A model generated the notes under the pieces. The model worked only from the letters and a program-made list of their open reading frames with translations. It was not told the origin of the DNA and ran no database searches. A program made the position numbers and the translations under genes. A stretch of 64,000 bases of DNA from Geosiphon pyriformis uo1 (taxonomy: Eukaryota; Fungi; Glomeromycota): positions 124,001 to 188,000 of the forward strand of contig JAAOMT010000429.1 of NCBI GenBank assembly GCA_016748015.1, in the 5' to 3' direction. Numbering within the stretch: position 1 is the stretch's first letter; every line of letters starts with the position of its first letter. Below are positions 6,690 to 64,000 of this stretch, in pieces.

Positions 6690-8123
6690 AAATAGCATTT
6701 AAATAGTTTTTGATCCAATACTTATGGAAAATATAGAAAGCATTTTGAATGTTTTAATCCAGAAAATAATTGTTTATGTCAATTGAAGATACTTCTGTTT
6801 TAGGAATGGTGCATTTATTTATACTTAATTTTTGCTGATTATTTGGGTCAGTATAACTACAACAGGCAACCAATTAGATCGTTTATGATATTTCTTGAGT
6901 CATGTACCATGAACAGAATGATCATTGAAGATTGTTCTGGATTGATCTTAAAGAATATAAGAACCATTGTTCAAAACTTTGTTGACTATAAAGAGTCTTT
7001 TCTACTGGCTAGAGAATTTATTATCATAAACATTGTCTCTGTTTGAATAGTATTCTAATACCAAATTACTAATACTTAAAAAAAGTGTTTTATAGATTTT
7101 CTTTTTCTTAAGTTTTTCTTGGAACTGTCTTATCTTTTCAAAAGCAATTATTCATGTTTCTACCAAGGAATCAAGAATGGTGTCAAGTCTTCTTTGCAAA
7201 ATGTTTTTGTAATTTTCTATTGTGATTTCAAAGGGTATTGTCTCAATATTAATTTCTATTGGTAGTGTTGTCATGCATTCATAGAGCAAATAAAAAGGTT
7301 CATAACTTGTTATGTCATGATTCACAGTTCTATAAGCAAACAAGACTGAAAGCAGTACTTTGTCTCATAAGTTTGTTTCTTCACTGGTTTTGGCTAGGGT
7401 TTCTATTAAAACGTTCTATTAGGTCATTTGTTTAAAAGTGATAAGGAGAAAAAAGTTTATAATGTATTCCTATTTTTTTACAAAGTTTTTTAACCAGTGT
7501 ACTGAGAAAAGCTCTTTTTCATCAAATAAAAGTTTTTTGGGACAGCCATGATAACAGATAATATCTTTATAAATAAAATTGGCTATTGAAATTGCTGTTT
7601 GGTCTGAAGTGGCTCTTGCTTCTACCCACTTTGTAAGATAATCAATATCTGTGATAATATATTTATTGCCATCAGAAATTATTGTTAAAAGTTTAACAAC
7701 ATCTATATCAATTCTGTCAAATAGTTAATTAACAGAGATTAAATGGATATCTTCTTTGTAATTGGGTTTGCCTCTTTTTTGGCAGATGTTACAAATTTTG
7801 ATGTATTTAGCAATGTTCTTTTCAAAAGTAGGCCAATAATAGTGAGCTAAAGTTTTCTGAATTGTTTTTGTTTTTCCAAAGTGTCTAGCTAATAGGTTAG
7901 TGTGCATATTGTATATTATAATTTCTTTTTTTTCAAATCTGATAACTCTCTAAGGACAGTCAGGATCTTTTTTGTTTTTTTTATATAATTGGTTCTGGCA
8001 GATCAAATAAAAATTTGATTGTTTGCACAAATGTTCTCTTTGCTGTCAAGTATATTCTGGTGAATATTGTCCTTTACCCAAAAATTCTATTAAGACAGAG
8101 TAGTTGTCCAAGTTTATTATCAT
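6690..8123 (-). pseudogene. E integrase (separate ORF)
   Basis: caaacaaacATG at 8123; HHCC (HTNLLARH...CNIC); decayed DDE core; AYRT...PFYLLY. The C-terminal boundary is approximate. Confidence 0.8.
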
Positions 8124-8181
8124 GTTTGTTTGTGAAGGAATTACTAATAATTAGATTAGTTTAATTTAAAAGATTGTACTA

Positions 8182-29500: not shown

Positions 29501-31998
29501 TGCCTAATTTCCAGTGACTTTGAATATTGTGATGATTGTGATATTGTTTACAATCTACCACCATACATAATTTACACAATTCCAGAAGAACACAAACCAA
29601 TCAGCAGCTGCACATTAGAATTAGAATCAATGTTTAATTCCAATTCAAACTCCAATAACAACAATGATGATAATAATGATTCCAGCTCTGTTCAAAATAA
29701 TAATAATAACAATTCAAACTCAGATTTAAACATAGAACAATATATTACACTCTCTGATCTTACCAAAGAGCAAGAACTGAAGTGGTTTAGTGATAATAAT
29801 GAAGGTATTATGCCAAAACACACACATGATACTAATGCAGGGTTTGATCTAAAATACCCAGGAAAAAAAGCTATTAAATTGGAATCACATTCATGCACCT
29901 GTATTGATCTAAAAGTAGCACTGAAGATTTCAGTGACGACAATGGTTCAATTCACATCCAGGAATAATTTAGTGAAAAAAAGGATTAACATCAGAGAAGA
30001 AATAATTAATACAGGATATATAGGAAATATTATTGCAATATTACAAAACAATTCAGAAAAAATCTATATCATAGAGCCAAATGAAAAAATAGCACAGGCA
30101 ATATTCCTGCCTCTGGTTAAAATAGCTCAATTAGTGTTAGTAAAAAAAAGAGAAAAATTAGGAATTACAACTAGAGAAATACAAAAATTCAAATTCACAG
30201 GTAGAATAAATATACCAGTTAATATAACAGAAAAAAAAGTTATTTCTATCCGTCAATCAATTTTTATCTTATCATATAACCAGTACATATTAGCCATAAA
30301 AAAGAATGTAAAGAATCAAGCTCAGATTTTTGAAGTGGAAACTACAATTTGTAAATTAGAAAAGATTGGACTCACCAATTTTTACATACCAGCCAAAAGC
30401 CTGAAGCACATAAAAATTTCCATCCATAATACAACTGAAGATGTTTTCGAAATACCAAAAGAAACTACCATTGAATATCTAAGCACTGAAGTTGAGAACC
30501 AACTGCCAAACACCATTCCAGATTTTCTACAACTGTACAGATATGTAGATATTACATCTCAAACAATTTATGAACAGAACAAATGTTATTTGTTCCAACC
30601 AAAACAATTAGAACAGATGAACTTAAGAAATCTAGACCTATTTTAACATATGCAGATTAAAATATTACTTAACAACTTCAATAAGTGAAAATGAATTTAG
30701 TAAAACTGACATAATCTAGCATTAAATAAAGACTGAAGATGCAATGCCAATCAAACAAAAAGCATATAAGATATCATCAGCCAGCCATAAAATTATTTGA
30801 CAAGAAATCAATCAAATGCTGGACAATAGACTAATACAACCATTAATGAGTTCATAGTTATCACCAGTAGTACTGGTCCAAAAGAAGAATAGGAAGATCT
30901 GGTTTTGTGTAGATTACAAAAAACTCAATAGAGTTACACATAGAAACAGTTATTTGGATCCAAAAACTATTCGATGCTTTTGGAAGGAAAAAATAATTCT
31001 TAACACTAGATTTAGACAGCAGTTACTGGCAAGTAGCCATGAATTCAGCTGACAAAAAGAAGATGGTATTTATTACTAGAGAAGAAAATTTTGAATTTGA
31101 AGTAATATCATTTGGCTTGATGAATGCTTCAGCCATATTTCAATAACTAATAAAAATTATTTATATAGGATTGCTATAAAAATCAATAATAATCTACTTG
31201 AACAACACCAATGTATTTTCAAAAACATTTAATGATCATTTATATTATCTTTAGCAAGTGTTTGAAAGATTAAGAAAAGCTAGACTGAAGTTAAATGCTA
31301 CTAAGTGCTTCTTTGGCAAAACAGAATTAAAATTCTTGAAATATGTTATAAGCAAAGACAGCATCAAAATAGATTCAGACAAGATTGAAATAGTCAAAAA
31401 CTTTTTAATACCAACTAATTTAACCAAACTACAAGCATTCTTGAGATTTGTTAAATACTATCACCACTTTATCAAAGATTTTTCCAAACTGGCTCAACCA
31501 TTACACCAGCTCTAAACAAAAAACACCAAGTATAAATGAAAGAAAAACCAGCAAGAAGCTTTCAACATATTAAGAAGAAAGCTGATTCAAGCTCCAGTAC
31601 TAATTTATCCAGATTATAGCAAGCCATTCATTATCATTACCAATACATCAGGTCAAGCATTGGAAGCAGTATTATTGCAAAGAGGACTAGATGGAAGAGA
31701 ACATCTAGTAGTATACACCAGCTCAAATTTGAGTCACAGCAAAAAAGAATTATAGAACACCAGCACTAGAATACTTAGTTATCTATTGGACTGTCATCAA
31801 ATGGAAAGAATACTTAAGCCAAAAGTTTGAAGTATACATTAATTACAAAGGATTGACTTCAATTCAAAAACAAGAATTTAGAGACAATTACTATGCTAAA
31901 TAGAAAATAAAACTTTCACTATTTAATTATACAGTACATTACAAAAAGAAAAAAAAAATGGAAATGCTGATGGTTTGTCGTGAATGAAACAAATCTAA
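26501..31998 (+). pseudogene. D gag-PR-Cys-rich-dUTPase-RT-RNase H (disrupted)
   Basis: Capsid ~26890-27500; decayed PR LIFDSRS at ~28345; ORF 29231-30646 with dUTPase (HDTNAGFDLKY, INTGYIG, EKIAQAIF); RT 30650-31515; RNase H ends MKQI* at 31996-31998. Confidence 0.9.
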
Positions 31999-32028
31999 GA
32001 ACATTCCAATCCAAAAATATAACAAAAG

Positions 32029-33409
32029 ATGAACACACAAAAATATTAACAACTTCAACATTTTATAAATACTCAATAGTTCAAAAAAAAATTATCTCCA
32101 AAGAAATGAAACCATATCAAACAACAGTCCAAATATTTTATCACTCACCAAAATATATTTTATCAGAAAAACAGAAAAAATTCAGATCAACTAACCAGAG
32201 TAATTACAGAACCAGAGAAAGAAACAATATTATTTAACATGTACTCTAATCTAACAGCAGGACATTTTCACAAAAAAGTAATCATAGAAAGAACCAAAAA
32301 AGATAATATTGGCCAATAATGTATCCAAACATCATTCAATATATCTAAAATTGTGATACTTGTTAGAGAAGAGGAGAAACAAAACCAAGCAAACCATTAA
32401 GACCAATCAAAATAAGACAACCATTTGATTACATTGAAATTGACTTAGTTAGACCATTAACAATAACCAGCAGAGGAAACAGATATATTGCAATAGCCAT
32501 GAATTATTTTACTAAATAGCCAGAAGCAAAAGCCATTCAAAGAACAGATGCAGAATCTGTTGCCAAATTTGTTTATCAAGATCTAATTTGTCAACATGGA
32601 TGTCCAAAAAAACTATTATCAGATCAAGGAATTTATTTTGTGAATAGAATATTAGCAAAATTGAGTCAAAGATTTGGAATAAAAAGACTATTATTATCAT
32701 TATATCATTTATAAACCAACAGCTTAGTTGAAAGATTCAATAGAATATTGTGTAAAGCAATTGTTAAAATTAGCCAAAAAAATCAAGATGAATGAGATTT
32801 GTTTATACCATCAGTATTATTCACTTATTAAACAATAAAGCAAGACACCATACAAGCAGCATTATTTGAATTAGTATATGGTAAAAAAGCAATATTATCA
32901 ATTGAAATAGAAGTTAACACATATCCAACAGAACCAATAACCAAAGATGATCTTCAAGAAATGTTGCTAAGAAGAACATATGACTTGATAAAAACTCTAG
33001 AAAACAAATGGCAAAGAGCAGCTAATAATATCCAGAAGTCACAAGAGAAACAAAAAAAAAGACATGATAACCAACTACTAGATAAACTAGTTGAATTCAA
33101 AATTAAAGACAAAGTACTCTTATATTATACCAAAATGAAAAAACAATGGAGTGGAAAATTTGACCCCAAATAGAATGGACCATTTTACATAAAAAAATTC
33201 TTGGAAATAGAGCTTACAAATTAAGATGAAACAACAAAATTTTAGCCAAAGCAGCACATAGTAATCAACTAAAACCATATTACCATATAGTATTATCATC
33301 TACCAATAATATTCCACAACTGGGAGTATAATGAATACTAATCCAACCAAATAAGATTCCATGAGATCTGGAACCAATTATAATCATTGAACCAAACATG
33401 TCAAATTAA
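32029..33409 (+). pseudogene. D integrase (separate ORF)
   Basis: aaagATGaac at 32029; colinear with the B integrase; many transition-derived stops. Confidence 0.85.
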
Positions 33410-36860: not shown

Positions 36861-38133
36861 CAAGTAGATTTTAACAACTTTACAGGAAGCACCACTTTTA
36901 TGTTACAGGTTGAAATAACAAACTAACAGATAGCAAAGGAGAACAAGATTATAAAATGATGAAAAGAATTAAAGAGAATTCAACTTCAAAGAGCAAATTG
37001 AATAAGTATGGATTCAATGTGTGAAATCAGTCTTATAAAATATTTCAGTTGCTATACTTTTCAAAAGATAACCAGGGAATCTGAAAGTAGAGGGATAGTC
37101 CGTACTGTCAACAAATGATCACACACTGGTATAATTCTATGTTTCATGTTAGTACTTTTAGAATTCAATATCAGATATCAAATGTACTTTTCAGTGTTAC
37201 CAGAGGTTTTTGGTCTCTTTTTTTGAATGTTGTAACTGTCTGTTGGTTGCAAATTCACATTTTCTAGAAGTAGTTGAACCTCTAGTAACTGAATTTATCT
37301 TCAAATTATTTCCTATAATTTGAACTGCTGGGCTTATAAGTAGAATGGCCAATTCCATGCCAGTTGCTTTGTGTAGTTATGTTGTAGTAAACGTCAACTC
37401 TTTCCCAGAAATTGCTCATCTAGAAGCTCACTAAAATGTGTAGTTACTTTGTTGTAAAAGTCAACTCTCCTACAGGAATCTTGTCTGTAGGCTACTCTAA
37501 TGATTGTAATAAAAAAATAAAAAAAAAATAAAAAAAATGTAAAAGAAATAGAATTTTATCAAGGAAAACGTTTTTCTATCTAGGCCTAGAGTTACTAACA
37601 GTTTACTGAAATTGGTAGCTAATCAATTTCAAAATGTTAGTTGGGTTTTAAGGATTTTCCAAGTGTAATAATTAAAGAATTTGGTTTTTTTGAATTATTT
37701 GATTTTTATTTTTTTTTGTGTGTGTAGGAATGGTTCTAAGTGATAAATTTAAAGTAAGATACATTTTCTCGAAGAGAAAAGCTCTTCTTTTATACAACTT
37801 GTCATAACACTATTCTATAAACTTGAACTTTGCTCTTTTCTATAATTTTGCTGAATTGAAGATACATTTCGGCAAACTACAAGTTAATTCTGCAAACTAT
37901 TAGATATTTCAGTGAATTATCAATTATTTTGGTGAATTTCTACAAATTTCAGCAAACTTTTGAATGTTACATATTTCGGGGTATTGTATGATTGATCATC
38001 GCAATTAGGTTACATCTGTGTTATGTACAAATTGGGTTATTAATTAAATGATAATTTTGGACATTTTGCTAATATAATAAGTGATAATTTAAAACAATAA
38101 TATATGCTAATTAATGATAAAGATAATTTCATG

Positions 38134-38853
38134 CTAAATAATATTTCTAATTTTGTCTGGTAACATAACCTCCTCCTTAAAACTGAGCTCCATCGAAGTC
38201 CAAGTACTGTCTATAATTTTCAGATAATAATCCAAAATTATTGAAGAAATTTGGTCTGAAAATTGTTGAAATTTCAGTTTAGTAAGCTTTCCAATATACT
38301 GAATCTTCAAAGGCTGTAAAATTGGGTTTTGTAGGACGTTTTCACAGGTATAAAATAGGTTATAAAGTCTAAGAGCAGCTCTTAGTTTATAATGACTGTT
38401 TGTAGGTCCAGCTGTTGTCTTGAATTCATTGTGGAGTTGTTTCTGAATAGCTTCTTTTGTGAGGTTTGCTGCTGTAAGCTCCCATTTTTGTTTGTAAAGT
38501 GTTTTTCCAATGTAGAAATATTTATATATTGGAGTATAGTTGTAGTTTTCTTTATTAAGACACAGTTGAAGTTTTTGTTGAATAGTAGCATTTGGTGGAA
38601 TACTAATAGAAGTGAGCATTAAGTTTTCTCTTAAAGCAAGCTTTAAAAGTTCTGGCAGGTGAATTCCAGAATAACTTCTTGTGTTCTTCTTATACAGGTG
38701 ATATTTTCGTGCATTTGGGGCTAAATTTGTAACTACTTCTATTTGGGTATAATTAATGTGGTTTCCAGTAACAGTAATGGATAATTCGGGTATTGTTTTT
38801 AAAGCTAACATTAGTTTTTGGAATAATTGTTGAATGTTTTGAGAAATAGTCAT
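38134..38853 (-). CDS. G ORF3, intact 239-aa protein of unknown function
   Basis: Open ATG-to-stop frame downstream of integrase that runs through the PPT into the 3' LTR; homologue in I from 63387. Confidence 0.75.
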   Translation of the reverse strand: MTISQNIQQLFQKLMLALKTIPELSITVTGNHINYTQIEVVTNLAPNARKYHLYKKNTRSYSGIHLPELLKLALRENLMLTSISIPPNATIQQKLQLCLNKENYNYTPIYKYFYIGKTLYKQKWELTAANLTKEAIQKQLHNEFKTTAGPTNSHYKLRAALRLYNLFYTCENVLQNPILQPLKIQYIGKLTKLKFQQFSDQISSIILDYYLKIIDSTWTSMELSFKEEVMLPDKIRNII

Positions 38854-38975
38854 TATAAAAGATTTGAAAATAAAGAAAAATTATTTTTGGTGTATGGGTT
38901 TTTATGTTATTTTTGTTTTGTTTTTGTGAGATTGTTTCTAAATTATAAGGAGATAACTATAATAATAAATTTAAA

Positions 38976-40360
38976 TTAAGTGTTCAAGTTGGGAGGTTGT
39001 TCAATGACAACTATTGGTTCTAAATTTTGGGGAATATTTTCAGGATTGATTAAAGGGAAATGTATACCAATTTGTGGAATTAATGGTTTAGGATTGTTTC
39101 TGGAATTATAGTGTTTCAAATGATCTCCATGTGCAACTTTTGCTAGGATTTTGACATCAAGTCTTAGCTTATATGATCCGTTGCCTAGGATTTCATGGAT
39201 AACAAATGGTCCATCCTATTTATTTTCAAATTTTTTACTCCATTGTTTTTTGGCTTTAGTTCTGTATAAGAGAACTTTGTTTCTAATTTTAAATTCATTA
39301 GTGACTGGTAGCAATTTATTGTCATGCCATTCTTTTTGTTAAGCTTTGGAGTGTTTAATGTGGATTGCTGCTATTCATCGTTTTTTTTCCAATGTGCTAA
39401 GCAGAGTGTAGGCTCTTTGTTGTAGTGTTTCCTGAAAGTTGTCTTCATTAATTGGCTGTACTGGGTATGTTTCTACTGTGAAACTAATTGGTAATGTTAC
39501 TGTCCTTCCATAGGTTAAATCAAATGGTGTGTGTTTTGTGGTATCTTGTTTTAGTGTTCTATATGCTAGTAACACTGATAGAATAAAAATATCCTATTCC
39601 TGCTCAAAATCTGTTGAGACTTTGGCTAAAGATTTACACAATGTTCTGTTGAAACGTTTTACAAGTCCATTTGTTTGTGAATAGTAGGGTGAAGATAATG
39701 GTCTTTTAACATTGAATTGTTCACAGATTTTTTGAATTAGATTGTTCACAAAATGTGTTCCTTGATTGGATAAAAGTTTGATTGGGCATCCATGTCTACA
39801 AATAATGTCTTCGTAAATGAAGTTTGCTACTGATTTGCATCTGCTCATTGAATGGCTCTGGCTTCAAGCCATTTGGTGAGATAATCTACAGCTACTGTGA
39901 TATAACGGTTTCCTTAGTTTATAATAGGTAGTGGTCCGACTAAATCAATACCAACTCAGTCAAAAGGCTGTCCAACTTTGATTGGATTTAAAGGTTCTGT
40001 AAGGCGAGTTTTTTTTCTTCTTTGACAACTATCACAAGATTTAATGTATTCATGAATGTCTTTTCTCATTTGGAGCCAAAAGTAGTGTTTTAATGTTCTT
40101 TGGGTGGTGCTATCTTTTCTTAAATGTGCTGATGAAAGGTCTGAGTGCATGTTGTATAAGATAGTTTCCTTCTCATTTTCTTGTATTAATTTGAGTGGTT
40201 TGTTTAGGTTTCTGAAGTTTTGATAATAAATGGTGTTATTGTGTAGAAAATATTGTTTGGCTTTTTGTTGTAATCAGTGTTTTTCATCTGAAGACCAATC
40301 TGTTGGGATTGTTAGTGTCTCCAAATATTGTTTGAGATTGTTGTAGTTTTCAGGGTTCAT
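38976..40360 (-). pseudogene. G integrase (separate ORF)
   Basis: aaacaATGaac at 40360; HSDLSSAH...CDSC, GIDLVGPL, LLSNQGTHF, GPFVIHEILGNGSYKL. Confidence 0.9.
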
Positions 40361-40409
40361 TGTTTGTTGTTTTTGTTACTGCTAATTCAAATGGGTGTTG
40401 GTTTTGTGT

Positions 40410-43400
40410 TCTAATCTTGTCTCATTCTTGAGAGACAATCAACATTAGTGTGGAGCTTTTCTAGTTTGTAATATACAATGTATTGGTAGTTGGCTAAAAA
40501 TTCTGTCCATCGGGTTTGTTTGGCATTCAGCTAAGTGTTTTTGTTTTAAAGCCATTTGAGTCCAATATTATCAGTGATAATATCGAATTCTTTGGGTTTG
40601 AAATAAAGATTGAAGTGATGTAGGGCCCAGATTACTGCTGTAGTTTCTAATTCTGTTGCAGGGTAATTCTTTTCAACTGGTTTCAATGTTCTGTTAGCAT
40701 AAACAATTACTCGCTCATTTCCATTGTCATCTAACTGTGATAAGATGGCACCAAAGGCAGTATAAGAAGCATCTGTTGCTAACTGGAATTGGTTGTTGAA
40801 ATCTGGGTAGGCAAAAATTGGAGCTGTGGTTAGTTTTTCTTTGAGGATTTCAAATGCATTTTGGTGTTCAGTAGTCTATTTGTATTCGATGTTTTTGGTG
40901 GTAAGCTGGTTAAGAGGTTTTGCGATTTCTGAAAATCCTTTGATAAACTTCCAATAGTAGGAGGCTAACTCTATGAATCTTCTTAGTTCTGTAGTGTTTT
41001 GAAGAGTTTTGAAGTTTTTAATAGTGCTGATTTTTTCAGGGTCTGGTTTGATTCCATCTTTATTAATGATGTAACCAAGAAAAGCCAAACTTGTTTTTCC
41101 GAAGTAGCATTTTTTGATGTTTAGTTTCAATTCTACTTTCCATAATTGTTGAAAGACTTCTCGCAGGTGTTTTAAGTGTAATTCAAAAAATGGTGAGTAA
41201 ACATCAGTATCATAGACAACTACTGATTTCCAAAGGAGGCCTTTGTAAACAACATCCATAAGTCTTTGGAATGTTGCTGGTACATTGCATAATCCAAAAG
41301 ACATTACATTGAACTCATAATTTCTTTCTTGAGTGGTGAATGCTGTTTTGGGGTGATCTTTGGGATCCATAGCAACTTGCCAGTATTCATTCTCTAAATC
41401 TAATATCAAAAAGTATTTGGACTTCTCAAGAGCATTTAGCATGTTATCAATTCAGAAAAAAGGGTAGACATCTTCAATGGTGATGCTGTTGAATTGTTGA
41501 TAATCAACACAAAATCGTATTTTTCCATTTTTTTTTTAACTAAGACCACAGGTGAGGCCCATGGACTTATTGATGGTTGAATAAGCCCATTGTTGAGCAT
41601 TCATTGTACTTCTTCGCGGATAAATTGGTGACTTTCTAGAGCAACTTGGTAGGCTTGCTGTCGCTTTGGTTTGGCATCTCCTGTGTTGATTTGATGTTAA
41701 ACCAAATTGGTTCTTCCTAAGTCATTATTGTTTTTGGCAAAAATATCGGCAAATTCTGCAATTAGCTCTTTGAGCTGGCTCTGTTGTTGTGGTTCAAGTT
41801 GTCCCATGATGATTTGAGATAGTTTTTCTATGACAACATAGTAGTTTTAAGAGCTGGGGTTTGGGTTGATTTTTAGTAGTGAATGTCCAATAATTTCAGA
41901 GAAATTGGGGACTATTTGGGGTAATTCTTGTTGAAAGATGTTACTGTGAATGATTTCAATTTCCAAGTTATTTAATAAAACTATGAGATAATTGTTGGGA
42001 TTGTAAAAAGTAACTCAGACTTTCTTTGTTCATTCTGGAATATTAATATTTTGAATTGAGATATTATGTTCCAAGCAGATTCATTCATTGGACTCAAAAA
42101 TTTGTTGGGTGGTTGTTGACTTTGGGCAGATATAGATTTCAGGGTGTTCTCCAAAAAGTGAAATAGTGATTGGTTGAGGAAAGCATAAAATCTGGTAAGA
42201 CTCATTCTGTTTATTGAGAGCTATGTTTACTGGAACTGTAAATCGTCCAGTTGAACCAAAATCTTGGATTCCTTTTTCACTTTTTCTCAATTGTTCTCTT
42301 TAATTAACTAATTGTAAATCTGAAATGTTGATTAAAGGTAAATAAATAGCTTGGGCAATTTTTTCAGCATGTTTAATCTTAAATGGCTTGTCAGTTTTGT
42401 TTTGGAGTATTACTGTTATATCACCAGTATATCTAGCATCGATTATTCCTCCTCTGACATTGATTCCTTTGCTTGCTAGAGAGGACTGGGAGGCGATTTG
42501 AACCATTGCTCCTGACAGGATTTCAAGAGCAATTTTGAGGTTGATTTTTGTGAGAAATTTGGATTTGAGAACAAGAGCATCTTTGTTTAAATATTTTAAG
42601 TCATATCCAGCATCAATTTTATGTGCTTTTTCAGGTTTTATTCTTTGTCTATTGTTGTTGAAGTATTTGAGTTGTAAGGCAGGCTGATTTTTAATGAGAT
42701 AGATGGGTGTTGTTTCAATTTTTTCTGTTGCTTTAGGTTCTTCAAATTCAATTTCGTTTTTATCGTTTTTACTGAGCAGGGAAATGCTAAGAGCATAGCA
42801 TTCAGAGCACCATTGCTTATCACAAGGCATTATGTATTCTTCACACAATTTAATGTTCATTTGCTCTAGCTGTTGAGCTTGAGGTTCTTTAGTCGGGTAG
42901 GTGTGACTTGCAATTTGATGGTACACTTTTACTTCATCTTCATAATCATATCTAGCTGATTCCAAGATATATTTGATATATTTAGCTTTTTTCATTTGAT
43001 GAACATCTTCTTTGGTAGCTTCATTAACCAATGCCATTGCTAAGTCGAAAATCATTTCAGCATCATAGAGGTAGTGATAGAGTTTGTTGAAAGCACTGTT
43101 GTATGCTGCATTAAAGGGTGTTTCTCTTTTGACTTTTTCTGAAATTGATAAAGCATATTGGCAAGTTTGATTACAGACTTCTCCTTTCATTGCTACATCA
43201 ATCCAATTGTATTCTTCTGGTAGTGTATCTCCACAAGTCAAACAAGGAGTGTTGTTCTATTTTTCACTTTTTTTTATTAGATGGCCCTATCGTTTTCTGT
43301 GGCAAGCTTTACAGTAATAACAAGTATGATTTTCATATTCTTCTTCAGGTGAAATGCAGGCTCCCATTAAGAAGAGTTTCTTGTGGCAGTCCTTGTATTT

Positions 43401-46041
43401 GAGTAGAATGTAAGGGTGTTGTTTCTTTGGTTCTGGTTTAGAATATGGGATGTTCTATTCAGAGGTTTCTGATTTCTCTGAATATGATTTTGTTGCAAAA
43501 TACATTTGCTCAGTTTCTTCAACCCAGTTAAATGTTGATTTAAGGGCCATAAATGTTTTGACTACAGGCTTTTCTTCCTCCTCTTCAAATTCGAAGACAG
43601 GGGCTTTTTCTGATTGTTTGTTAAATGTACCACAAGTAATGGGTACTCAGGCATGTTGTCCTTAATAAAAGAGTTGTAATTCTTGGGTTTTTCAGTCTAA
43701 TTTTGCATTGGCTTTTTGGAGCCAATCATTTCTGACAAGGGTTTGATACTGGGGCACATCCATTACAAGAACTTTGACTGGAATGATGAATCCATCAAGA
43801 GTGAATAAAAAATTGTCAATTTCTCCTATGAGAGTTTTTTTCATGTCATTAACAGTGACAATTACTGTCTGAACTGGTTGGTCAACATTTCTCTTTAACT
43901 GTTGCATCAACTGGTAGGTGATGATGCTTCTGGTAGATCCACTGTCTAGGATCAAGCAAATTGTCTTTCCTTTGACTTCTGCTTCAGTGTACATAGCAGT
44001 GATTGCTTTTTGTTCATTGGTGGCTGCATTGCTGAGCAAGAATGGTCACTTATTTGCTTTGAACTCAAAAGTGAAAGATTGGCATTTTCAGCAATTCTGG
44101 CTGGTAGGATTGTGGTAGAAGTATAGGAAGGGTTTTGTTGTCATGCTGCAGCTCTACCTTCCGAGAGTACAATATGGTGAAAATCTTGTTCTTCTGGCAT
44201 TGTTAAATAACTGGGTTGAGTGTGATAGTGGTTGGGTCTTGGTTGAGTGGAATTTCAGAAAACCAATTGGTTGTTCGAACTGATTCTATTGTTGTTTACT
44301 TGGTATCAGTTTTGTGGTGTAAATTGATTTTGTGTAATCAATTTTTGAGCAGGTACTTAATAATGTTGTGTGGGTGGTTGTTAGTATTGCTGTTAGATTG
44401 GCTGTGAGATAGGCTGATAATAGTTATTTTGGTATTGGGGTCTTAGTAGATAGTAAGCTGGTGATGGTGGTTGATAATAAGATTGCTGTGGTGGAGAATA
44501 ACATTGATTACTCCTATTTTGTTGGTCTCATTGTAGCTTTCTGCAATCTTTTTTCCAGTGGCCAAAAATTCCACAGTAATGGCAATTCTAAGGCTGGTTA
44601 TTAGAAAGTAATGTGAAGTTATTTTGATTTTATCTTTGAGGTAGTTGATATCTTTGGGGTTGCTGTTGTTGTTGGTTGGTGAAATAGTTTTCGACTTTCT
44701 TTGTAAGTTGGTCAATTTTCTCCTTAGCTGCTAAGCTGGTTTCTCTAATGGCCAAGTTTACAAGTTTTGTGCAATTGGCCTCTTTTATGGCCATTTCATA
44801 TCTCTTTGCATACTGTATGGCAGAGTTTAAATCTTCTGGGGCATGTGGGCAAACTTTTTTAATCAGTTTATCCTTTAGACCAGCAATAAATTGATCCAAG
44901 ATTTGAGCATTGGAATAATAATCATTAGTTTTAAGTTGGCAAATTTGTCTGAGAAGTTTGTTGAATTTCCCAATATAAGTCATAACAGATTCGAAGAGTT
45001 CTTGTTTGATATTGCAAAAATGATTTCAAAGAGTAATGGAGATGTTGTTATCAGTGAATTGTTCTAAGAAGGCAGTTTTGAAAGCTGTCCAGTCATTAAA
45101 AAGGGTGGTCAATTTTTCGAACCATTTGCCTGCTGTTCCTTTGAGAAAGTAAGGAATTGTTCTTAACATTCTGGCAGCATTCTATTTATTTGCATCTCCA
45201 GCTTTAGTAACTTGGTCGAAACATTCTTGAGGACTGGTCTCAATATTTTTTCCATTAAATTCAGAAATTTTTGCAATATAAGCTGTTATTTTATCTTCTT
45301 TCTTGTTATCTGTTAATTCACTTTCTTCTTCAGATTCTATTTCTTCTTTAATAGTTTCAGAAATGTTTTTTTTGTTGGCTAATGTTTCAGAGTGTTTACT
45401 TGTGTTTTCTGCTAAATAGTCAAGAAGATTGGTACTAGTCTGAAGGATTTCTTGTTGTCTGGTGGGACTTCTGGGTGATGTATAATCTTCTAGTCTTAAA
45501 AATCAATTTAAAGATGAATTAGGAGTTTCTGCTTGTGCAAGTAAAGCTGGAAAAGGTGTAATAGTGAGTGAGAGTTTTGAACTGGTTCCTTGTTCAGGTG
45601 TTTGTAAGTTTTTGGCAGTTGTTTTTAGTAGTATTGGAGTATTTGGGGTGGTTTTTGAGTATTGCTTCAATTTTTGTTTGCTTTTGTTGCTTGTTTCTGT
45701 CTCTGATTCAAAGTCAAAAGAGTATTTAAACTGTACTGGGTATTTTTTTTCACAATACTCAATAATGTTAAAATTAAGTTCTTGGAAGTAAGTAGAAGTG
45801 TTTCACTGTTCAGATCTTCTGTTCCCAATTGTGAATAGTGCACTAAATTATTGTAAAAGTTGCTTCTAACTTCTGAAATGTTGTAGTTTTTAAAAAGATA
45901 ATTGTTGATGCGGTCTTCAATGTATTGGTATACTGATTTCTTGAAAACTTCAATTCCGTCTGGAATGTTGAATCTTTGCTTGCAGTGTGTGTAAATTAAC
46001 TGGTAATACTCTAGAGTTGCTGTGTCTGGTGTGGTTGCCAC
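40410..46041 (-). pseudogene. G gag-PR-Cys-rich-dUTPase-RT-RNase H single ORF (disrupted)
   Basis: Zinc knuckle CHYCGIFGHWKKDC; LILDSGS; ORF 42300-43241 with dUTPase AHKIDAGYDL/GGIIDARYTG/EKIAQAI; RT ORF 40876-41442; ends DCLSRMRQD*. Confidence 0.92.
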
Positions 46042-47729
46042 TTTGAATTTGTTGTTGCTGTGTTATTTCCGTGGGAGAGCACCAAATGTTACCAGAGGTT
46101 TTTGGTCTTTTTTCTTAAATGTTGTAACTGTCTGTTGGTTACAAATTCACGTTTTCTAGAAGTAGTTGAATCTCCAGTAACTGAATTTATCTTCAAATTA
46201 TTTCCTATAATTTGAACTGCTGGGCTTATAAGTGGAATGGCCAATTCTATGCCAGTTGCTTTGTGTAGTTACGTTGTAGTAAATGTCAACTCTTTCCCAA
46301 GAATTGCTTGTCTAGAAGCTCACTAAAATGTGTAGTTACTTTGCTGTGAAAGTCAACTCTCCTACAGGAATCTTGTTTGTAGGCTACCCTAATGATTGTA
46401 ATAAGAAAAGAAAAGAAAAATAAAAAAAATGTAAAAGAAATAGAATTTTATCAAGGGAAACGTTTTTCTATCTAGGCCTAGAGTCACTAACAGTTTATTG
46501 AAATTAGTAGCTAATCAATTTCAAAATGTTAGTTGGGTTTTAAGGATTTTCTAAGTGTAATAATTAAAGAATTTAGTTTTTTTGAATTATTTGATTTTTT
46601 TTTTTTTTTTGTGTGTGTAGGAATGGTTCTAAGTGATAAATCTAAAGTAAGATACATTTTTTCGAAAAGAGAAGCTCTTCTTTTATACAACTTGTCATAA
46701 CACTATTCTATGAACTTGAATTTTGCTCTTTTCTACAATTTTGCTGAACTAAAGATACATTTCGGCAAACTACAAGTTATTTCTGCAAACTATTAGATAT
46801 TTCAGTGAACTATCAATTATTTCAGCAAATTTCTACAAATTTCGGCAAACTTTTGAATGTTACATATTTCGGAGTATTGCATGATTAATTATTGCAATTA
46901 GGTTATATTTGTGTTATGTACAAATTGGGTTATTAATTAAATAATAATTTTGGATATTTTGTTAATGTAATAAGTGATAATTTGAAACAATAATATATGC
47001 TAATTAATAATAAAGATAATTTCATGCTAAATAATATCTCTAATTTCATCTGGTAACATCAGTTACATTTTATTCAATAATCTTCAAATACTACAATTAC
47101 ACATTTTAAGAAAAGAGTAAGAAATAACCAATAAGTAATCTTTTATCTCAAGATGTTTAGATACTTGAAGATAAGAAAAAAGAAATTAGCAATAAAAGTA
47201 TAATTGAAATGAAAGTTGTTATTTTATTTCTTTTTTTCTTTGATTCTTATATGCTTTTCTACAGCTAAGAGATTTATTACTTATATAACTATTAAAAAAA
47301 GTTAATGATTAGATCAATGACTAGGTTAATGATTAGGTTAATAATCAGGTCAATAATTAGGTTATTGATCAGGTCAATGATTAGGTCAATGATCAGATCA
47401 ACAGTCAGGTCTTTGATTAGGTCAATGATTACTATCTAAAAATAGGATGGCTAATTATATGACATTAGTGGCTAATACATGTGATAATTAATAAGAAATA
47501 TAGGTTTCAACTGTAACAATACAATCTAAAACTAAGATAAAAATTTGTAATTTTACCAAAGTTAATAATAATAAACTATAAATATTTATAAATATTTTTT
47601 TTATTAAAGTTTAATAAACAAGACCCAAAAACTACTTAGAATAATATATCAAACTAAGTAATCTAAACTAGACACTAATCATGCATTTTTCACACATAAC
47701 CAACCACTCAGACCAGTTAAGGACAAACT

Positions 47730-55175: not shown

Positions 55176-56156
55176 TGTTACCAGACGAAATTAGAGATAT
55201 TATTTAGCATGAAATTATCTTTATAATTCTTATCATTAATTAGCATATATTATCGTTCAAATTACTACTTATTATATTAGCAAAATATCTGAAATTATTA
55301 TTTAATTAATAAACTCAATTTGCACATAACATAAATATAACCTAATTGCAATGATCAATCATGTAATACTCTGAACTATATAACATTCAAAAAGTTCGCC
55401 GAAATTTGTAGAAATTTGCCGAAATAATTGATAGTTCACCGAAATATCTAATAGTTCACAGAAATAACTTGTAGTTCACTGAAATGTATCTTTAATTCAG
55501 CAAAATTGTAAAAAAGAGCAAAGTTCAAGTTCATAAAATAGTGTTACGACAAATTGTATAAAAGAAGAGCTTCTCTTTTCGAGAAAATGTATCTTACTTT
55601 AGATTTATCATTTAGAACCATTTCTACATACACAAAAAGAAATAAATATCAAATAATTTGAAAAACCAAATTCTTTAATTATTGTACTTGGAAAATCCCC
55701 AAAACCCAACTAACGTTTTGAAATTGATTAGCTACCAATTTCAGTAAACTGTTAGTGACTCCAGGCCTGAATAGAAAAACGTTTCTCTTGATAAAATTCT
55801 ATTTCTTTTACATTTCTTTTATTTTTCTTTTTTTTTCTTATTACAATCATTAGGGTAGCCTACAGACGAGATTCCTGTAGAAGAGTTGACTTTCACAGCA
55901 AAGTAACTACACATTTTTAGTGAGCTTTCAGACAAGCAATTCCTGGGAAAGAGTTGACGTTTACTACAATGTAACTATACAAAGTAACTGGTATGGAATT
56001 GGCCATTCCACTTATAAGCCCAGCAGTTCAAATTATAGGAGATAATTTGAAAATAAATTCAGTTACTGGAGGTTCAACCACATCCAGAAAATGAGAATTC
56101 ACAGCAAACAGGTATCAACAACATTTAAGAAAAGAGACCAAAAACCTCCAGTAACA
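55176..56156 (+). repeat. 5' LTR of I
   Basis: tgttaccagac...ccagtaaca; reverse-complement homologue of 46087-47058. Confidence 0.95.
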
Positions 56157-56201
56157 TTTGGTGCTCTCCCATGGAAACAACATAGCAAAAACAACTTCAA
56201 A

Positions 56202-59200
56202 GTGACGACCACACCAGATACAACAACTCTAGAGTATTACCAATCAATTTACACCCACTGCAAGCAAAGATTCAACATTCCAGATGGAATTGAAGTTGTC
56301 AAGAAATCAGTATACCAATATATTGAAAACTGCATCAACAATTATTTTTTTGGAAATTACAATATCTCAGAAGTTAGAGGCAATCTTTATAATAATTTAG
56401 TACACTATTCACAGTTGGAAACTGAATACCTTAACAGTGAAACACTTGCCACTTACTTTCAAGAACTTAATTTTAACATTATCAAGTACTGTGAAAAAAC
56501 ATATCCAGTGCAGTTTCAATATTCTATTGATTTTGAATCAGAGACAGAAACAAGCAACAAAGACAAACAAAAATTGAAGCAATACTCAAAAACCACCCCA
56601 AATACTTCAATACTACCAAAAACAACTGCCAAACACTTACAAACACTTAAACAAGGAACTAGTTCAAAACTTCCACTTACTATTACTTTTTTTCCAGCTT
56701 CACTTGCACAAGCACAAACTCCTAATTCACTCTTAAATTGATTTGCAAGACTAGAAGATTTTACATCACCCAGAAGTCCCACCAGACAACAAGAACCCCT
56801 TCAAACTAGTTCTAATTTTCTTGACTTTCTAGCTGAAAATCATAGTGAACACTCTGAGACAGCAGTGAACGAAAAAAATGACTCTGAAATATCTGAAGAA
56901 GAATCAATAGACAGTGAAAATGAAGAAGATGAAATAACAGCATACATTGCAAAAATTCCTGAATTTAATAGAGAAGACATTGAAACCAGTCCCCAAGAAT
57001 GGCTCGACCAAGTTACTAAAGCTGAAGATACAAATGGATGGAATGCTGCTCGAATGTTAAGAACAATTCTTTACTTTCTCAAAGGAACAGCAGGAGAATG
57101 GTTTGAAAACTTGACCACCTCTTTTAATGACTGGACAGCTTTCAAAACTGCCTTCTTAAAACAATTCACCGATAACAACACCTCAATCACATTTCGAAAT
57201 TGTTTTCACAATATCAAACAAGAATCCTCCAAATCTGTTATGACTTATATTGGGAAATTCAACAAATGTCTCAGACAAATTCGCCAACTTGAAACTAATA
57301 ATTATTATTCCAATGCTCAAATTTTGGATCAATTTATCACTGGTTTAAAGGATAAACTGATTAAAAAGGTTCGCCCACATGCTCCAGAAGATTTAAACTC
57401 TGCCATTTAGCATGTAAAGAGATATAAAATGGTCATAGAAAAAGCCAATCATACAAAACTCATGAACTTAGCCATTGGATAAACCAGCTCAGCAGCTAAA
57501 GAGAAAATTGACCAACTTGCAAAGAAAATCATTTCATCAACTAACAACAACAGCAACCCCAAAAATATCAACTACCCTAAAGACGGAATCAAAACAATTT
57601 CATATCATCTTCTAATAACCAGCCTCAGATTTGCCATTACTGTAGAATCTCTGGCCACTGGAAAAAAAATTGCAGAAAGCTACAACAAGATCAACAAAAT
57701 AGGAGTAATCAACGTTACCCTCCACCACAGCAATCTTATTATCAACCACCACCACCAGCTTACTATCTATCAAGACCCCAATACCAAAATAACTATTATC
57801 AGTCCGCTCCACAGCCAATTTAACAACAATACCAACAACCACCCACACAACATTATCAAGTACCTGCTCGAAAATTAATTCTGCAAAATCAATTTACACC
57901 ACAAAACCAATACCAAGTAAACAACAATAGAATCAATTCAAACAACCAATTGGTTCCCCGAAATTCAGTTCAACCAAGACTCAACCACTATCATACTTAA
58001 CCTAGTTATCTTATGATGCCAGAAGAACAGAATTTTCACCATACTGCACTCTCAGAAAATAGAGCTGTAGCACAACAACAAAACCCTTTCTATATTTCTA
58101 CCACAATCTCACCAGCCAGAATTGCTGAAAACACCAATCTTTCAGATATATTTCCTTTCAAATTTGAAGCAAATGAATCACCATTCTTGCTTAGCAATGC
58201 AGCGGTTAACAAGCAAAAAGCCATTACTGCAATGTACACAGAAGCTGAAGTAGAAGGAAAGCCAATTTGCTTGATCCTAGACAGTGGATCTACTGGAAGC
58301 ATTATCACATATCAATTGATGCAGCAGCTAAAGAGAAATGTTGACCGACCAGCTCAGACAATCATTGTCACTGCTGATGGCATGAAAAAAACTCCAGTAA
58401 GAGAGATTGAAAACTTCTTATTCACAATTGACAGAATCACTATTCCAGTCAAAGTTCTGGTCATAGATGCTCCCCAATACCAAGCTCTCATTGAAAATGA
58501 TTGGCTTCAAAAAGCCAATGCTAATCTGAATTGGAAGACACAAGAGTTAACAATCTCTTATTAAGAACAACATGCCCGAGTACCTGCCACTTGTGGTACA
58601 TTCAACAAACGCTCTGAAAAAGCCCCGGCTTTTGAATTCGAACCGGAAGAAGAAAAGCCCATCATTGAAACATTTATGGCACTTGGGTCAATTTTTAATT
58701 GGGCCAATGAAACTAAACAATAGTACTTTTTAACAAATAATTCTCTTGAAACAAAAAAACCAGTGACAGCCAGATGGAATGTTCTCTATTCAAAACCAGA
58801 ACCACAAAAACAACACCCCTACATTCCACTCAAATGCAAGGACTGCCACAAGAAACTCTTCTCAATGGGAGCCTGCATTTCACCTGAAGAAGAATATGAA
58901 AATCATACTTGTTATTGCTGCAAGGCTTGCCACAGAGAATGATGGGGCCATCTAATAAAAAGAAGCAGAAAATGGGACAACACCCCTTGTTTGACTTGTG
59001 GAGATATGCTACCAGAAGAATGCAATTGGATTGATGTAGCAATGAGAAGAGGAGTCTGCAATCAGACCTGCCAATATGCTTTATAAATTTCAGAAAAAGT
59101 AAAAAGAGAAACACCCTTTAATGCAGCATATAACAGTGCTCTCAACAAACTTTATTACTACTCCCATGATGCTGAAATGATTTTCGACCTAGCAATGGCA

Positions 59201-61831
59201 TTAATTAATAGAGCTATCAAAGAAGATGTCCATCAAATGAAGGAAGCAGAATACATTGAATACACCATAGAATTAGCTGGATTCGATTACGAAGATGAAG
59301 TAGAAGTCTACCACCAAATTGCAAGTCACATCTACCCAATCCAAGAAGCTCAAATTCAACAATTAGAGCAAATAAACATTAGGCTATGTAAAGAATGCAT
59401 TATGTCTTGTGATGAACAGTGGTGTCCTGAATGCTATGTCTTTAGCATTTCATTACTCAGTGAAAGTAACGAATATGAAATCAAATTTGGTGAACCTGAA
59501 GCAACAGAAGAAATTGAAACATCACCCATTTATCTCATCAAAAACCAGCCTGCCTTACAACTCAAATACTTTAACAACCATGGACAAGGAATAAAACCTG
59601 GAAAAGCACATGAAATTGATGCTGGATATGACCTAAAATATTCAGACAAGGATACTCTTATTCTCAAACCCAAATCTCTTACAAAAATTAACCTCAAAAT
59701 TGCTCTCGAAATTCCGCCAGGAGCAATAGTTCAAATTGCCTCCTGGTTCTCTCTGGCAAGCAAAGGAATCAATGTTAAAGGAGGAATAATTGATGCTAAA
59801 TATACTGGTAATCTAACAGTAATACTCCAAAATGAAACCAATAAATCTTTCAAGATTGAACATGTTGAAAAAATTGCCCAAGCTATTTATCTACCCTTAA
59901 TCAACATTTCGGGTTTACAATTAGTCAATCAAAGAGAACTATTGGAAAAAAGTGAAAGAGGAACCCAAGGTTTTGGTTCAACTGGACAATTCACAGTTTT
60001 AGTAAACATAGCCCTCAACAAACAGAAAAAATTTTACCAGATTCTATGACTTCTACAACCAATTACTATTTCACCCTTTGGAAAACATCCGGAAATCTAC
60101 ACCTGTCCAAAGTCAACAACCACACAACAAATTTTTGAATCCAACAAACAAGTCTCCTTGGAACATAATATCTCAATCCCAAACATTTATATTCCAGAAG
60201 AAACAAAAAAAGTCTGAGTTATTTTTTACAATCCCAACAATTATCCCATAGTTTTATTAAATAACTTAGAAATTGGAATCATTTACAATAACATCTTTCA
60301 ACAAGAATTACCCCAGACAATTCCCAATTTCTCAGAAATCATTGAACATTCACTACTAAAAATCAACCCAAATCACAGTTCTGAGAACTACCATGTTGTC
60401 ATGGAAAAACTATCTCGAATCAACATGAGACAACTTGAACCATAACAGCAGAACCAGCTCAAAGAGTTAATTGCAGAATTTGCTAATATCTTTGCTAAAA
60501 ACAACAATGACTTAGGAAGAACCAATTTGGTTCAACACCAAATCTATACAGAAAATGCCAAACCAAGGCGACAACAAGCCTACTGAGTTGCTCCAGAAAG
60601 TCACCAATTTATCTGAGAAAAAATGCAACGAATGCTTAACAATGGCCTTATTTAACCATCAATAAATTCATGGGCTTTACCTGTGGTTCTAGTTAAAAAG
60701 AAAAATGAAAAGATACAATTTTGTGTTGATTATTGACAACTCAACAGCATCACTATTGGAGATGCCTACCCTCTTCCCTGAATTCATGATATGTTGGATG
60801 CCCTTGGAAAGTTTGAATACTTTTCGACATTAGATTTAGAGAGCAGATACTAGCAAGTTGTCATAGATTCCAAAGATCGCCCCAAAACAGCATTCACCAC
60901 TCAAGGAGGAAACTACGAGTTCAACGTAATGCCTTTTGGATTATGCAATGCACCAGCAATATTTCAAAGACTCATGAATGTTGTTTACAAAGGCCTCCTT
61001 TGGAAATCAGTGGTTGTCTATCTCGATAATACTGATGTTTATTCACCATCTTTTGAATTACACTTAAAACACCTGTGCGAAGTTTTTCAACAATTATGGA
61101 AAGCAGGATTGAAACTGAACATCAAAAAATGCTACTTCAAAAAAACGAGTCTGGCCTTTTTTGGTTACATTGTTAGCAAAGATGAAATTAAACCAGATCC
61201 CAGAAAAATCAGCACTGTCAAAAACTTCAAGACTCCTCCACAAAATACTACAGAATTGAGAGGATTTATTAGATTAGCTTTCTATTACCAAAAATTCATC
61301 AAAAGATTCTCAGAAATCACAAAACCTCTCAACCAGCTCACTACTAAAAATGTCAAATACAAATGGACAGAAGAACACCAAAAAGCTTTTGAAATTCTCA
61401 AGAAAAAGCTAACAACAGCTCCAATTCTCGTCTACCCAGACTTCAGTAACCAATTTCGACTAGCTACAGATGCTTTTTACACTGTCTTTGGTGCCATCTT
61501 ATCACAATTAGATGACAATGGAAATGAGCAAGTAATTGCTTATGCTAGTAGAACATTAAAACCAGCCAAAAAAAACTACTCTGCCACAGAACTAAAAACA
61601 ACAGCCGTAATTTGGGCCCTACACCACTTTAACCTTTATTTCAGGCCTAAAGAATTCGATATTATCACTGATAATATTGAACTCAAATGGCTTCAAAACA
61701 AAAACACCCAACTGAATGCAAAACAAACCTGATAGACAGGATTTTTAGCCAACTACTGATACATTGTACACCACAAACCAGAAAAACTCCACACCAACGT
61801 TGATTGTCTCTCAAGAATAAGGCAAGATTAG
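56202..61831 (+). pseudogene. I gag-PR-Cys-rich-dUTPase-RT-RNase H single ORF (disrupted)
   Basis: ORFs 56865-57410 (capsid), 58013-58564 (LILDSGS), 59177-60049 (all five dUTPase motifs including RGTQGFGSTG) and 60929-61732 (RT/RH). PR through RH share one frame; ends DCLSRIRQD*. Confidence 0.93.
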
Positions 61832-61877
61832 AACATAAAAACAACACCTATTTGAATTAACAACAAAACAACAAACA

Positions 61878-63263
61878 ATGAACCCCGAAAACTACAACAA
61901 TCTTAAACAATATCTGGAAACATTAACAATCCCAACAGATTGGTTCTTAGATGAAAAATATCAGTTACAACAACAAGCCAAACAATACTTCTTACACAAC
62001 AACATTATTTATTATTGAAACTTCAGAAACCCAGACAGTCAGCTCAGATTAATACAAGAACATGAAAAAGAAACCATTTTATATAACATGTACTCAGACC
62101 TTTTATCAGCATATCTAGGAAAAGACAGCACCACCCAGAGAACACTAGAATATTATTTTTGGCCTCAAATGAGAAAAGACATTCATGAATACATTAAGTC
62201 TTGTGATAGTTGTCAAAGAAGAAGAAGAACTCGCCCTACAGAACCTTTAAACCCAATCAAAGTTAGACAGCTTTTTGACTAAATTGGTATCAATTTAGTC
62301 AAACCACTCCTTATTACAAACCAAGAAAACTGTTATATTGTAGTAGCTGTAGACTATCTCACCAAATGGCCTGAAGTCAGAGCCATTCAACGAGCAGATG
62401 CAAAATCAGTAGCAAGCTTCATCTATGAAAACATTATTTGTAGACATGGATGTCCAATAGAACTTTTATCTGATTAAGGAACACATTTCGTGAACAATTA
62501 AATCCAGGAAATTTGTGGATGATTTAATGTCAAGAGACCATTATCTTCATCCTACCATCCACAAACAAATGAACTTGTAGAATGTTTTAACAGGACATTA
62601 TGTGAATTATTAGCCAAAGTCTTAACCGATTTTGAGCAAGAATAGGATCTCTTTATTCCATCAGTGTTACTGGCATATAGAACACTAAAACAAGATACCA
62701 CAAAACACACACCATTTGATTTAACATACGAAAGGACAGCAACATTACCAATTAGTTTTATAGTGGAAACATACTCAGCACAACCAATTGATAAAAACAA
62801 TTTCCAAGAAACACTACAATGAAGAGTCTACACTCTACTTAGCACGTTAGAAGGAAAATAACAAATAGCAGCCACCCATATTAAACACTTCCAAGCTCAA
62901 CAAAAAGAACAGCATGATGACAAATTGTCTCCAGTTACCAGTGGATTTAAAATCGGAAACAAAGTTCTCTTACACAGAACTAAAGCTGAAAAACAATAGA
63001 GTGGAAAATTTGAAAATAAATGAGATGAACCATTCTTTATCCATGAAGTCCTAGGCAATGGATCATACAAGCAAAGACTTGATAACAAAATTCTAGCAAA
63101 AGTTGCACATGGAGATTGTTTGAAACACTATAATTCCAGAAACAATCCTGAACCATTAATTCCACAAATTGGCACACATTCCTTTTTAATCAATCCCAAA
63201 GATATTCCCTGGAATTTAAAACCAATAGTTGTTATTAAACAACCTCCCAACTTGAACACTTAA
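61878..63263 (+). pseudogene. I integrase (separate ORF)
   Basis: aaacaATGaac at 61878, in a different frame from RNase H; colinear with the G integrase. Confidence 0.9.
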
Positions 63264-63386: not shown

Positions 63387-64000
63387 ATGACTATTCCTCA
63401 AAACATTTAACAATTATTCCAAAAACTAATGTTAGCTTTAAAAACAATATCCGAATTATCCATTACTGTTACTAGAAACCACATTAATTATACCTAAACA
63501 GAAGTAGTTACAAATTCAGCCCCAAATTCACGAAAATATTATCCATATAAAAAGAACACAAGAAGTTATTCTGGAATTCACCTGCCAGAACTTTTAAAGT
63601 TTGCTTTAAGAGAAAACTTAATGCTCACTCCTATTAGTATTCCACCAAATACTACTATTTAACAAAAACTTCAACTGTGTCTTAACAAAGAAAACTATGA
63701 CTATACTCCAATATATAGATATTTATACATTGGAAAAACACTTCACAAACAAAAACGAGAGTTTACAGCAGCAAACCTCACAAAAGAAGCTATTCGAAAA
63801 CAACTCCACAATAAATTTAAGACAACAGCTGGACCTACAAACAGTTGTTATAAACTAAGAGCTGTTCTTAGACTTTATGACCTATTTTACACCCGTGAAA
63901 ACGTCTTACAAAACCCAATTTTACAACTTTTGAAGATTCAATACATTGGAAAGCTCACAAAACTGAAATTTCAACAATTTTCAGACCAAATTTCTTCAAT
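63387..64000 (+). pseudogene. I ORF3 (disrupted, runs off the window)
   Basis: Homologue of G 38134-38853 with CAA>TAA stops. Confidence 0.75.

Follow-up and report, generated by a model that had tools for sequence, protein, structure and literature searches.

A separate integrase cistron downstream of RNase H in Ty3/Gypsy elements of Geosiphon pyriformis and their relatives, and candidate routes to its expression

We analysed a 64,000-nucleotide stretch of the genome of the fungus Geosiphon pyriformis uo1 (contig JAAOMT010000429.1, positions 124,001 to 188,000; hereafter the window), which is filled by nested long terminal repeat (LTR) elements. The window is A+T-rich (GC 25–37%) and strongly depleted in CpG dinucleotides (observed/expected ratio of 0.16). 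It contains five decayed Ty3/Gypsy copies (I, G, D, B and E) of three LTR lineages, and Pfam models matched gag, aspartic protease, dUTPase, reverse transcriptase (RT) and the H2C2 and rve domains of integrase. The best relative of solved structure, by sequence search of the PDB, was the Ty3 Gag-Pol protein (E 2e-49). Textbook LTR retrotransposons and retroviruses deliver their integrase within Gag-Pol. In all five copies, by contrast, RNase H ends in a stop just past its D.LSR motif and the integrase has its own start 30–62 nt downstream (ATG, or ATA in copy B). A first-pass annotation had reported both features, and we recovered them at every junction. This supports the integrase as a separate cistron in the order gag-protease-dUTPase-RT-RNase H / integrase / ORF3, where ORF denotes an open reading frame. 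The features of copy I and the other four junctions are as follows:

55176..56156, plus strand: 5' LTR of copy I, with TG...CA ends
56159..56175, plus strand: putative primer-binding site of copy I, beginning TGG, 2 nt past the LTR
56001..61828, plus strand (start approximate): decayed gag-protease-cysteine-rich insert-dUTPase-RT-RNase H of copy I
61829..61831, plus strand: TAG ending RNase H of copy I (DCLSRIRQD-TAG), four codons past DCLSR, with a second in-frame TGA
61832..61877, plus strand: 46-nt spacer of copy I, A/C-rich, unstructured and without ATG
61878..63263, plus strand: decayed stand-alone integrase ORF of copy I (ATG at 61878, frame +1), with an N-terminal helical extension, H2C2, rve core and C-terminal domain
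63389..64000, plus strand: ORF3 of copy I, running off the window end, a member of a conserved helical ORF3 family (HMM E 5.5e-14)
40360..40413, minus strand: junction of copy G, with the RNase H stop (TAG, 40413–40411), a 50-nt spacer and the integrase ATG at 40360, frame +2
31996..32031, plus strand: junction of copy D, with TAA at 31996, a 30-nt spacer, ATG at 32029, frame 0 and a second TAA
15742..15809, minus strand: junction of copy B, with TAA at 15809, a duplicated spacer of 62 nt and ATA at 15744 replacing the start codon, frame +2
8121..8184, minus strand: junction of copy E, with TGA at 8184 followed by TAG, a 58-nt spacer and ATG at 8123, frame +1

Given the decay of the copies (9 stops in the 449 RT-RNase H codons of copy I and 10 in its 461 integrase codons), one stop alone could be due to chance. 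However, the stop lies 3–4 codons past the motif and, across three lineages, the ATG falls at a matching point of the protein, which argues against chance. Furthermore, neither a single frameshift nor a single read-through event can join RNase H to integrase at any of the five junctions. Copy G, formerly assigned the same +1 frame as copy I, is in frame +2, and its spacer is 4 nt longer. The window spacers are unstructured and A-rich, and four contain no ATG. We also compared positions 61800–61910 with 186 contig pieces at least 80% alike from the one public DNA run in which this family is present, possibly the window's own source. Contigs lose rare variants, and variants at a level of at least 3% were seen only at spacer sites 61834, 61836, 61841 and 61849. 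None affected the TAG or ATG of copy I.

The split is also present in related elements, some of them intact. The best 80 of 542 metagenome loci with an integrase alignment were fetched; 40 of these cover both the RNase H end and the integrase start, and the other 40, without a visible RNase H end, were left out of the counts. All 40 informative loci were split and none was fused, with the three relative frames represented 12, 14 and 14 times. The gap between RNase H and integrase ranged from −20 to −1 nt in 10 loci, was +2 in one, 24–163 in 24 and at least 365 in five, with a maximum of 943 nt. The long gaps of L053 and L072 reflect premature stops in the Pol tail, and three loci are true cases of more than 300 nt. 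Examples of intact split elements include L045 (a 1,612-aa Gag-Pol, integrase and ORF3), L054, L069 and the LTR-flanked L088. A continuous RNase H-integrase frame, which would have contradicted the earlier proposal, was found in the DNA of neither the window copies nor the 40 informative loci.

Protein searches provided further context. Among the best 120 of 903 integrase matches, restricted to lengths of 253–807 residues, 117 start with methionine. In 95 of the 120, this methionine is 66–75 residues ahead of the zinc finger, and the next residue is always D (67), E (19) or N (9). The methionine count alone is biased because gene callers start at ATG; the comparison at the DNA level carries more weight. 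The closest named protein among the matches listed for the window integrase is from G. pyriformis (78% over 35% of the query), and IMG/VR yielded distant integrases only (best identity of 30%). A search with RT-RNase H for longer proteins (best 120 of 3,335 matches) retained 110 for tree building (match of at least 400 aa). Integrase is present in 47 of them, 41 end no more than 30 residues past the match, and the remaining 22 extend further, with an integrase-free tail. The most similar RT-RNase H proteins listed (up to 53%) are without integrase.

The elements share with the Ty3/Gypsy group (Metaviridae, e.g., yeast Ty3) the TG...CA LTRs, target duplication, primer-binding site and polypurine tract (all in copy G), as well as the order gag-protease-RT-RNase H-integrase with Gypsy-type RT, RNase H and integrase. 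A dUTPase between protease and RT is also present in PosPlaTy3-5 (PMC2864245; sources cited by PMC number are cited from partial text throughout). Ty3 integrase is, however, part of Gag-Pol (PMC4974528), whereas here it is outside Pol, with its own ATG, no linker to RNase H and an extra ORF3 downstream. Additions seen in some sub-lineages are a zinc-finger tail past RNase H and, ahead of the integrase ATG, a hairpin. The C-terminal chromodomain of the chromovirus branch was found neither on the window integrase nor in the domain listings of the 120 integrase matches. As all five window copies and all 40 informative loci are split, the elements are best described as a variant rather than canonical members of Ty3/Gypsy. 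Foamy virus Pol, which is made from a separate pol mRNA, offers a likeness in an enzyme that would be made apart from Gag yet reach the particle; the whole Pol is separate there and only the integrase here. Gag GR boxes and Pol incorporation have been described for foamy viruses (PMC12789967). The annotation's view that the system was undescribed is borne out within the searchable literature, where we found no LTR element described with an integrase ORF of its own, including in the available portions of PMC3248453, PMC2864245, PMC2836005 and PMC13468544; such a description could still exist in Repbase reports, supplements or journals available by subscription, which lay outside that scope.

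A large, old lineage without a Gag-Pol integrase must translate the enzyme and bring it to the complementary DNA (cDNA) by other means, and thus offers one natural system where questions of integrase translation and delivery are both testable. It would also add a eukaryotic case of polycistronic translation, with a series of junctions that includes overlaps, short spacers, hairpins and long spacers. Furthermore, the split would explain many lone 'integrases' and false RNase H-integrase fusions in annotations of mycorrhizal fungi.

The sequence around the integrase start has features expected of a used initiation site. A purine is present at position −3 in 56 of 63 integrase starts, compared to 2659 of 4712 (56%) other ATGs. 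Spacers are unstructured and contain fewer ATGs than expected, both in the 20 clear spacers of up to 200 nt (5 versus 17.0; Poisson p 7e-4 for loci that are not independent) and in all 24 spacers (10 versus 23.9). Stop and start overlap in 10 of the 40 junctions (three ATGA, one TAATG and six others), and the integrase starts within −20 to +2 nt of the upstream stop in 11. Two long spacers contain small ORFs of 60–70 codons (L038:2490-2854, basic, and L073:871-1391).

A single in-frame stop was also identified upstream of RT, followed by CTA (TGA-CTA) in six loci and in the context TAG-CAA-TTA in one (L037:2882, L038:870, L059:902, L063:3290, L103:1585, L088:3358 and L112:929). Both are known read-through contexts, which suggests that in those sub-lineages read-through is programmed in the part of the element between the protease region and RT. 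Contexts of this type do not recur at the RNase H stop. Recognizable read-through signals elsewhere in the same elements, together with blocked recoding at the RNase H stop (24 of the 40 metagenome junctions, in addition to the window), argue for a separate integrase start.

We also identified a 43-nt stem-bulge-stem-loop directly 5' of the integrase ATG in 17 loci, plus one truncated and weak case, among 81 sources searched (for example, L040:582-624, L045:5189-5231 and L054:4460-4502). The model was built from 14 loci, and the three further strong matches are near copies. Hairpin cells are 94% paired, compared to 23–47% in slid controls, 8 of the 13 pairs changed on both sides, and none of 500 shuffles matched the covariation score. 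The distance of the hairpin to the ATG is −2 to 9 nt in 17 of 18 cases, and that to the upstream stop is 14–138 nt. It is absent from the window and confined to a sub-lineage whose Pol ends in an acidic tail with the motif CxxxC-x4-HHxH-xx-CxxC. Rfam covariance models run against the 14 loci at E values up to 5 gave one chance minus-strand match elsewhere, unrelated to the hairpin, and the exact pattern had no match in viral or prokaryotic contigs. By eye, the hairpin lacks a hammerhead core. Its position points to a possible role in controlling integrase initiation or in protein binding. A shortened hairpin is present at L050:21-61, and L098 has a different hairpin in the same place. The acidic tail itself extends 80–400 aa past RNase H and has no Pfam match (P0171, P0182, P0200 and P0233; L045, L054, L061 and L069).

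We propose, with about an even chance of being right, that the integrase is made by re-initiation on genomic RNA after translation of Gag-Pol. In the window families, the 40S subunit would scan 30–60 unstructured nucleotides, as proposed for LINE-1, whose spacer is 63 nt and for which termination-reinitiation has been suggested (PMC5972666). In relatives with overlapping cistrons, the ribosome would restart on the overlapping stop/start. In one sub-lineage, the hairpin found at the ATG would guide ribosome positioning or serve as a binding site for a protein of the element. Precedents are provided by LINE-1 and SART1 ORF2, victoriviruses and hypoviruses, where a second long cistron follows a long ORF via a UAAUG/AUGA overlap or a short spacer (PMC5972666). 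Those are non-LTR elements or RNA viruses, however, and here the second cistron is the integrase, and the gaps range from −20 to more than 700 nt without a common upstream structure. Many members encode Gag and the enzymes in a single frame, and a low efficiency of re-initiation would then hold integrase levels far below those of Gag. Integrase made on packaged RNA would load via that RNA or RT instead of via a Gag fusion. Our guess is that binding in cis to the RNA or RT is its route to the cDNA; it may also meet the cDNA outside the particle, and different sub-lineages may use different expression routes.

Several observations weigh against re-initiation or the counts behind it. Re-initiation after 1,300–1,800 codons is expected to be weak. 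The metagenome loci are related, so their counts are not independent, and the integrase ATG is uncertain in six of the 40. A frameshift window is retained at 13 of the 40 junctions and a single in-frame stop at three. No common structure was found before the RNase H stop, and the motif TGGGA, which we take to be motif 1 of calicivirus-type TURBS, is absent within 90 nt upstream of the stop in 38 of the 40 loci and present in two. The hairpin has a fixed distance to the ATG and a variable one to the stop, which ties it to initiation rather than termination. Furthermore, the long spacers of L038 (365 nt), L073 (521 nt) and L088 (727 nt) contain 7–12 ATGs and could not be crossed by scanning from the Pol stop. 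Their last 60–110 nt are free of ATGs, as would fit an internal promoter or a splice acceptor. The depletion of ATGs and the start context would be just as expected if a separate mRNA had its 5' leader here.

Such a subgenomic mRNA, as a source of the integrase and ORF3, is the most serious rival, and we regard it as a real if tentative possibility. It would arise from an internal promoter in the RNase H end or spacer, or by splicing that joins the 5' leader to an acceptor site ahead of the ATG. Long ATG-rich spacers with ATG-free ends need a route of this kind, tracts of 70–100% A+T extend over 30 nt ahead of the hairpin, and the third cistron likewise needs expression. Internal initiation is known for Ty1 p22 (PMC4974528) and internal promoters for foamy viruses (PMC12789967). 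However, the stop/start overlaps are the usual mark of coupling, no constant YAG acceptor was evident by eye before the ATG, and the junctions have no promoter motif in common. Cap-independent internal entry on the genomic RNA, via the A-rich unstructured spacer or the 43-nt hairpin, strikes us as quite unlikely. The A-rich spacers of the window and the covariation and fixed place of the hairpin beside the ATG would suit it, whereas the hairpin is restricted to a minority of sources and missing from the window, overlap-type junctions have no spacer, and 43 nt is small for an internal ribosome entry site.

A Gag-Pol-integrase fusion that is still made through a spliced spacer, frameshift or read-through, or a split that is mere decay, appears very improbable to us. 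Four database proteins of Rhizophagus clarus join RNase H to integrase, 16 of the 40 loci retain a formal recoding route, and three fused elements lie near the lineage in both trees described below. The R. clarus proteins, however, are without the last 15–23 columns of the RNase H profile, including D.LSR, and have two join points, as introns introduced by gene prediction would. Mere decay is largely refuted by the intact split elements, and the freely varying gaps and frames, together with the blocked junctions, led us to reject a fixed frameshift or read-through, in agreement with the first-pass annotation. The other outcome that would have spoken against it, an intron precisely removing the spacer, was also not found as a common feature: at the DNA level, only 8 of 32 short-tail loci have an in-frame GT/GC..AG pair whose use would leave the RNase H motif intact, and these pairs lie at scattered places.

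Trees of RT-RNase H place the split elements in one deep radiation with weak support. A single origin is compatible with the data (approximately unbiased (AU) test, p 0.89), and the constrained tree exceeded that of the quick search by 47 log units. The lineage is deep and probably mainly fungal. RT and integrase sub-groups agree, which argues against recent swapping. Three fused elements (P0311, P0329 and P0324) are near the split lineage in both the RT and integrase trees, which means that there are fused sister elements or re-fusions. In P0311, a methionine occupies the position where split integrases start.

Stand-alone integrases are also known from Ginger1 DNA transposons, which share with the split elements a Gypsy-like integrase, an N-terminal extension like the YPYY region and a 4-bp target duplication (PMC2836005). 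Unlike Ginger1, which has no RT and carries terminal inverted repeats, the integrases described here are inside LTR elements, directly behind RNase H in 40 of the 80 loci and all window copies, and have no Ulp1 or OTU domains. About 8 of 16 Ginger1-type proteins (integrase plus Ulp1, OTU or PHD) begin with M-D/E/A in the register of split integrases, and the best matches of one Ginger1-type query were split integrases (41–42%). Ginger1 forms its own clade, with a tentative attachment to the split integrases (support 67/87; AU p 0.39). PMC2836005 likewise states that Ginger1 is not joined with support to any Gypsy lineage, in agreement with our trees. The Gypsy lineage that could have given rise to the stand-alone Ginger1 transposases is missing, and the split lineage is a candidate for it. 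A bolder and rather doubtful idea is that the split integrase is a free-standing, transposase-like cistron sharing its origin with Ginger1 and that the hairpin at its start codon, recognized by a protein of the element (the Pol zinc-finger tail or ORF3), controls integrase synthesis and loading. If true, these elements would connect DNA transposons with Gypsy elements as a living link.

ORF3 encodes a homologous all-helical protein of about 140–260 aa, located 3' of the integrase in 24 of 40 loci with enough sequence (21 in the training set). The multicistronic order of the first-pass annotation stands, with a dUTPase added between protease and RT, but ORF3 is not obligatory. Matches in the window are clear in copies G and I, weak in D and B (E 0.19) and absent in E. 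The AlphaFold model has a pLDDT of 95. The family has no common Pfam or PHROG family, no PDB sequence match and no Foldseek match at E 0.001; the best VIA-align Z score was 4.4, and the ESM Atlas had no usable match for the window ORF3. This lack of matches does not show a new fold. The absence of ORF3 from 16 of these 40 loci shows the split to be independent of it and weakens the notion of an obligatory transactivator or loading adaptor. Stop/start overlaps are also present between integrase and ORF3 (L044:1488, −4 nt; L085:1557, −1; L055:1596, −8; L051:2039, −11).

Copy G is complete, with LTRs 93.6% alike, TG...CA ends, a 4-bp target duplication (CTGA), primer-binding site and polypurine tract:

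37195..47058, minus strand: full-length copy G, with LTRs at 46087–47058 and 37195–38165
38134..38853, minus strand: ORF3 of copy G, open over 239 aa and crossing the polypurine tract into the 3' LTR (overlap at 38134–38180)

In copy I, the gag frame is open from within the 5' LTR across the primer-binding site (56001–56160, plus strand). Its cysteine-rich insert between protease and dUTPase (58830–59440, plus strand; matching part in copy G) has several CxxC pairs and no Pfam match was seen. A NUDIX hydrolase is encoded by the third ORF of L042 (1945–2886) and within Pol of P0180, P0184 and P0198, where others have the dUTPase. Outside the LTR elements, a weak RT match (Pfam RVT_1, E 1e-5) at 54383–55168 (plus strand) is probably a fragment of another retroelement, and positions 18859–19653 are occupied by tandem repeats of about 87 nt each.

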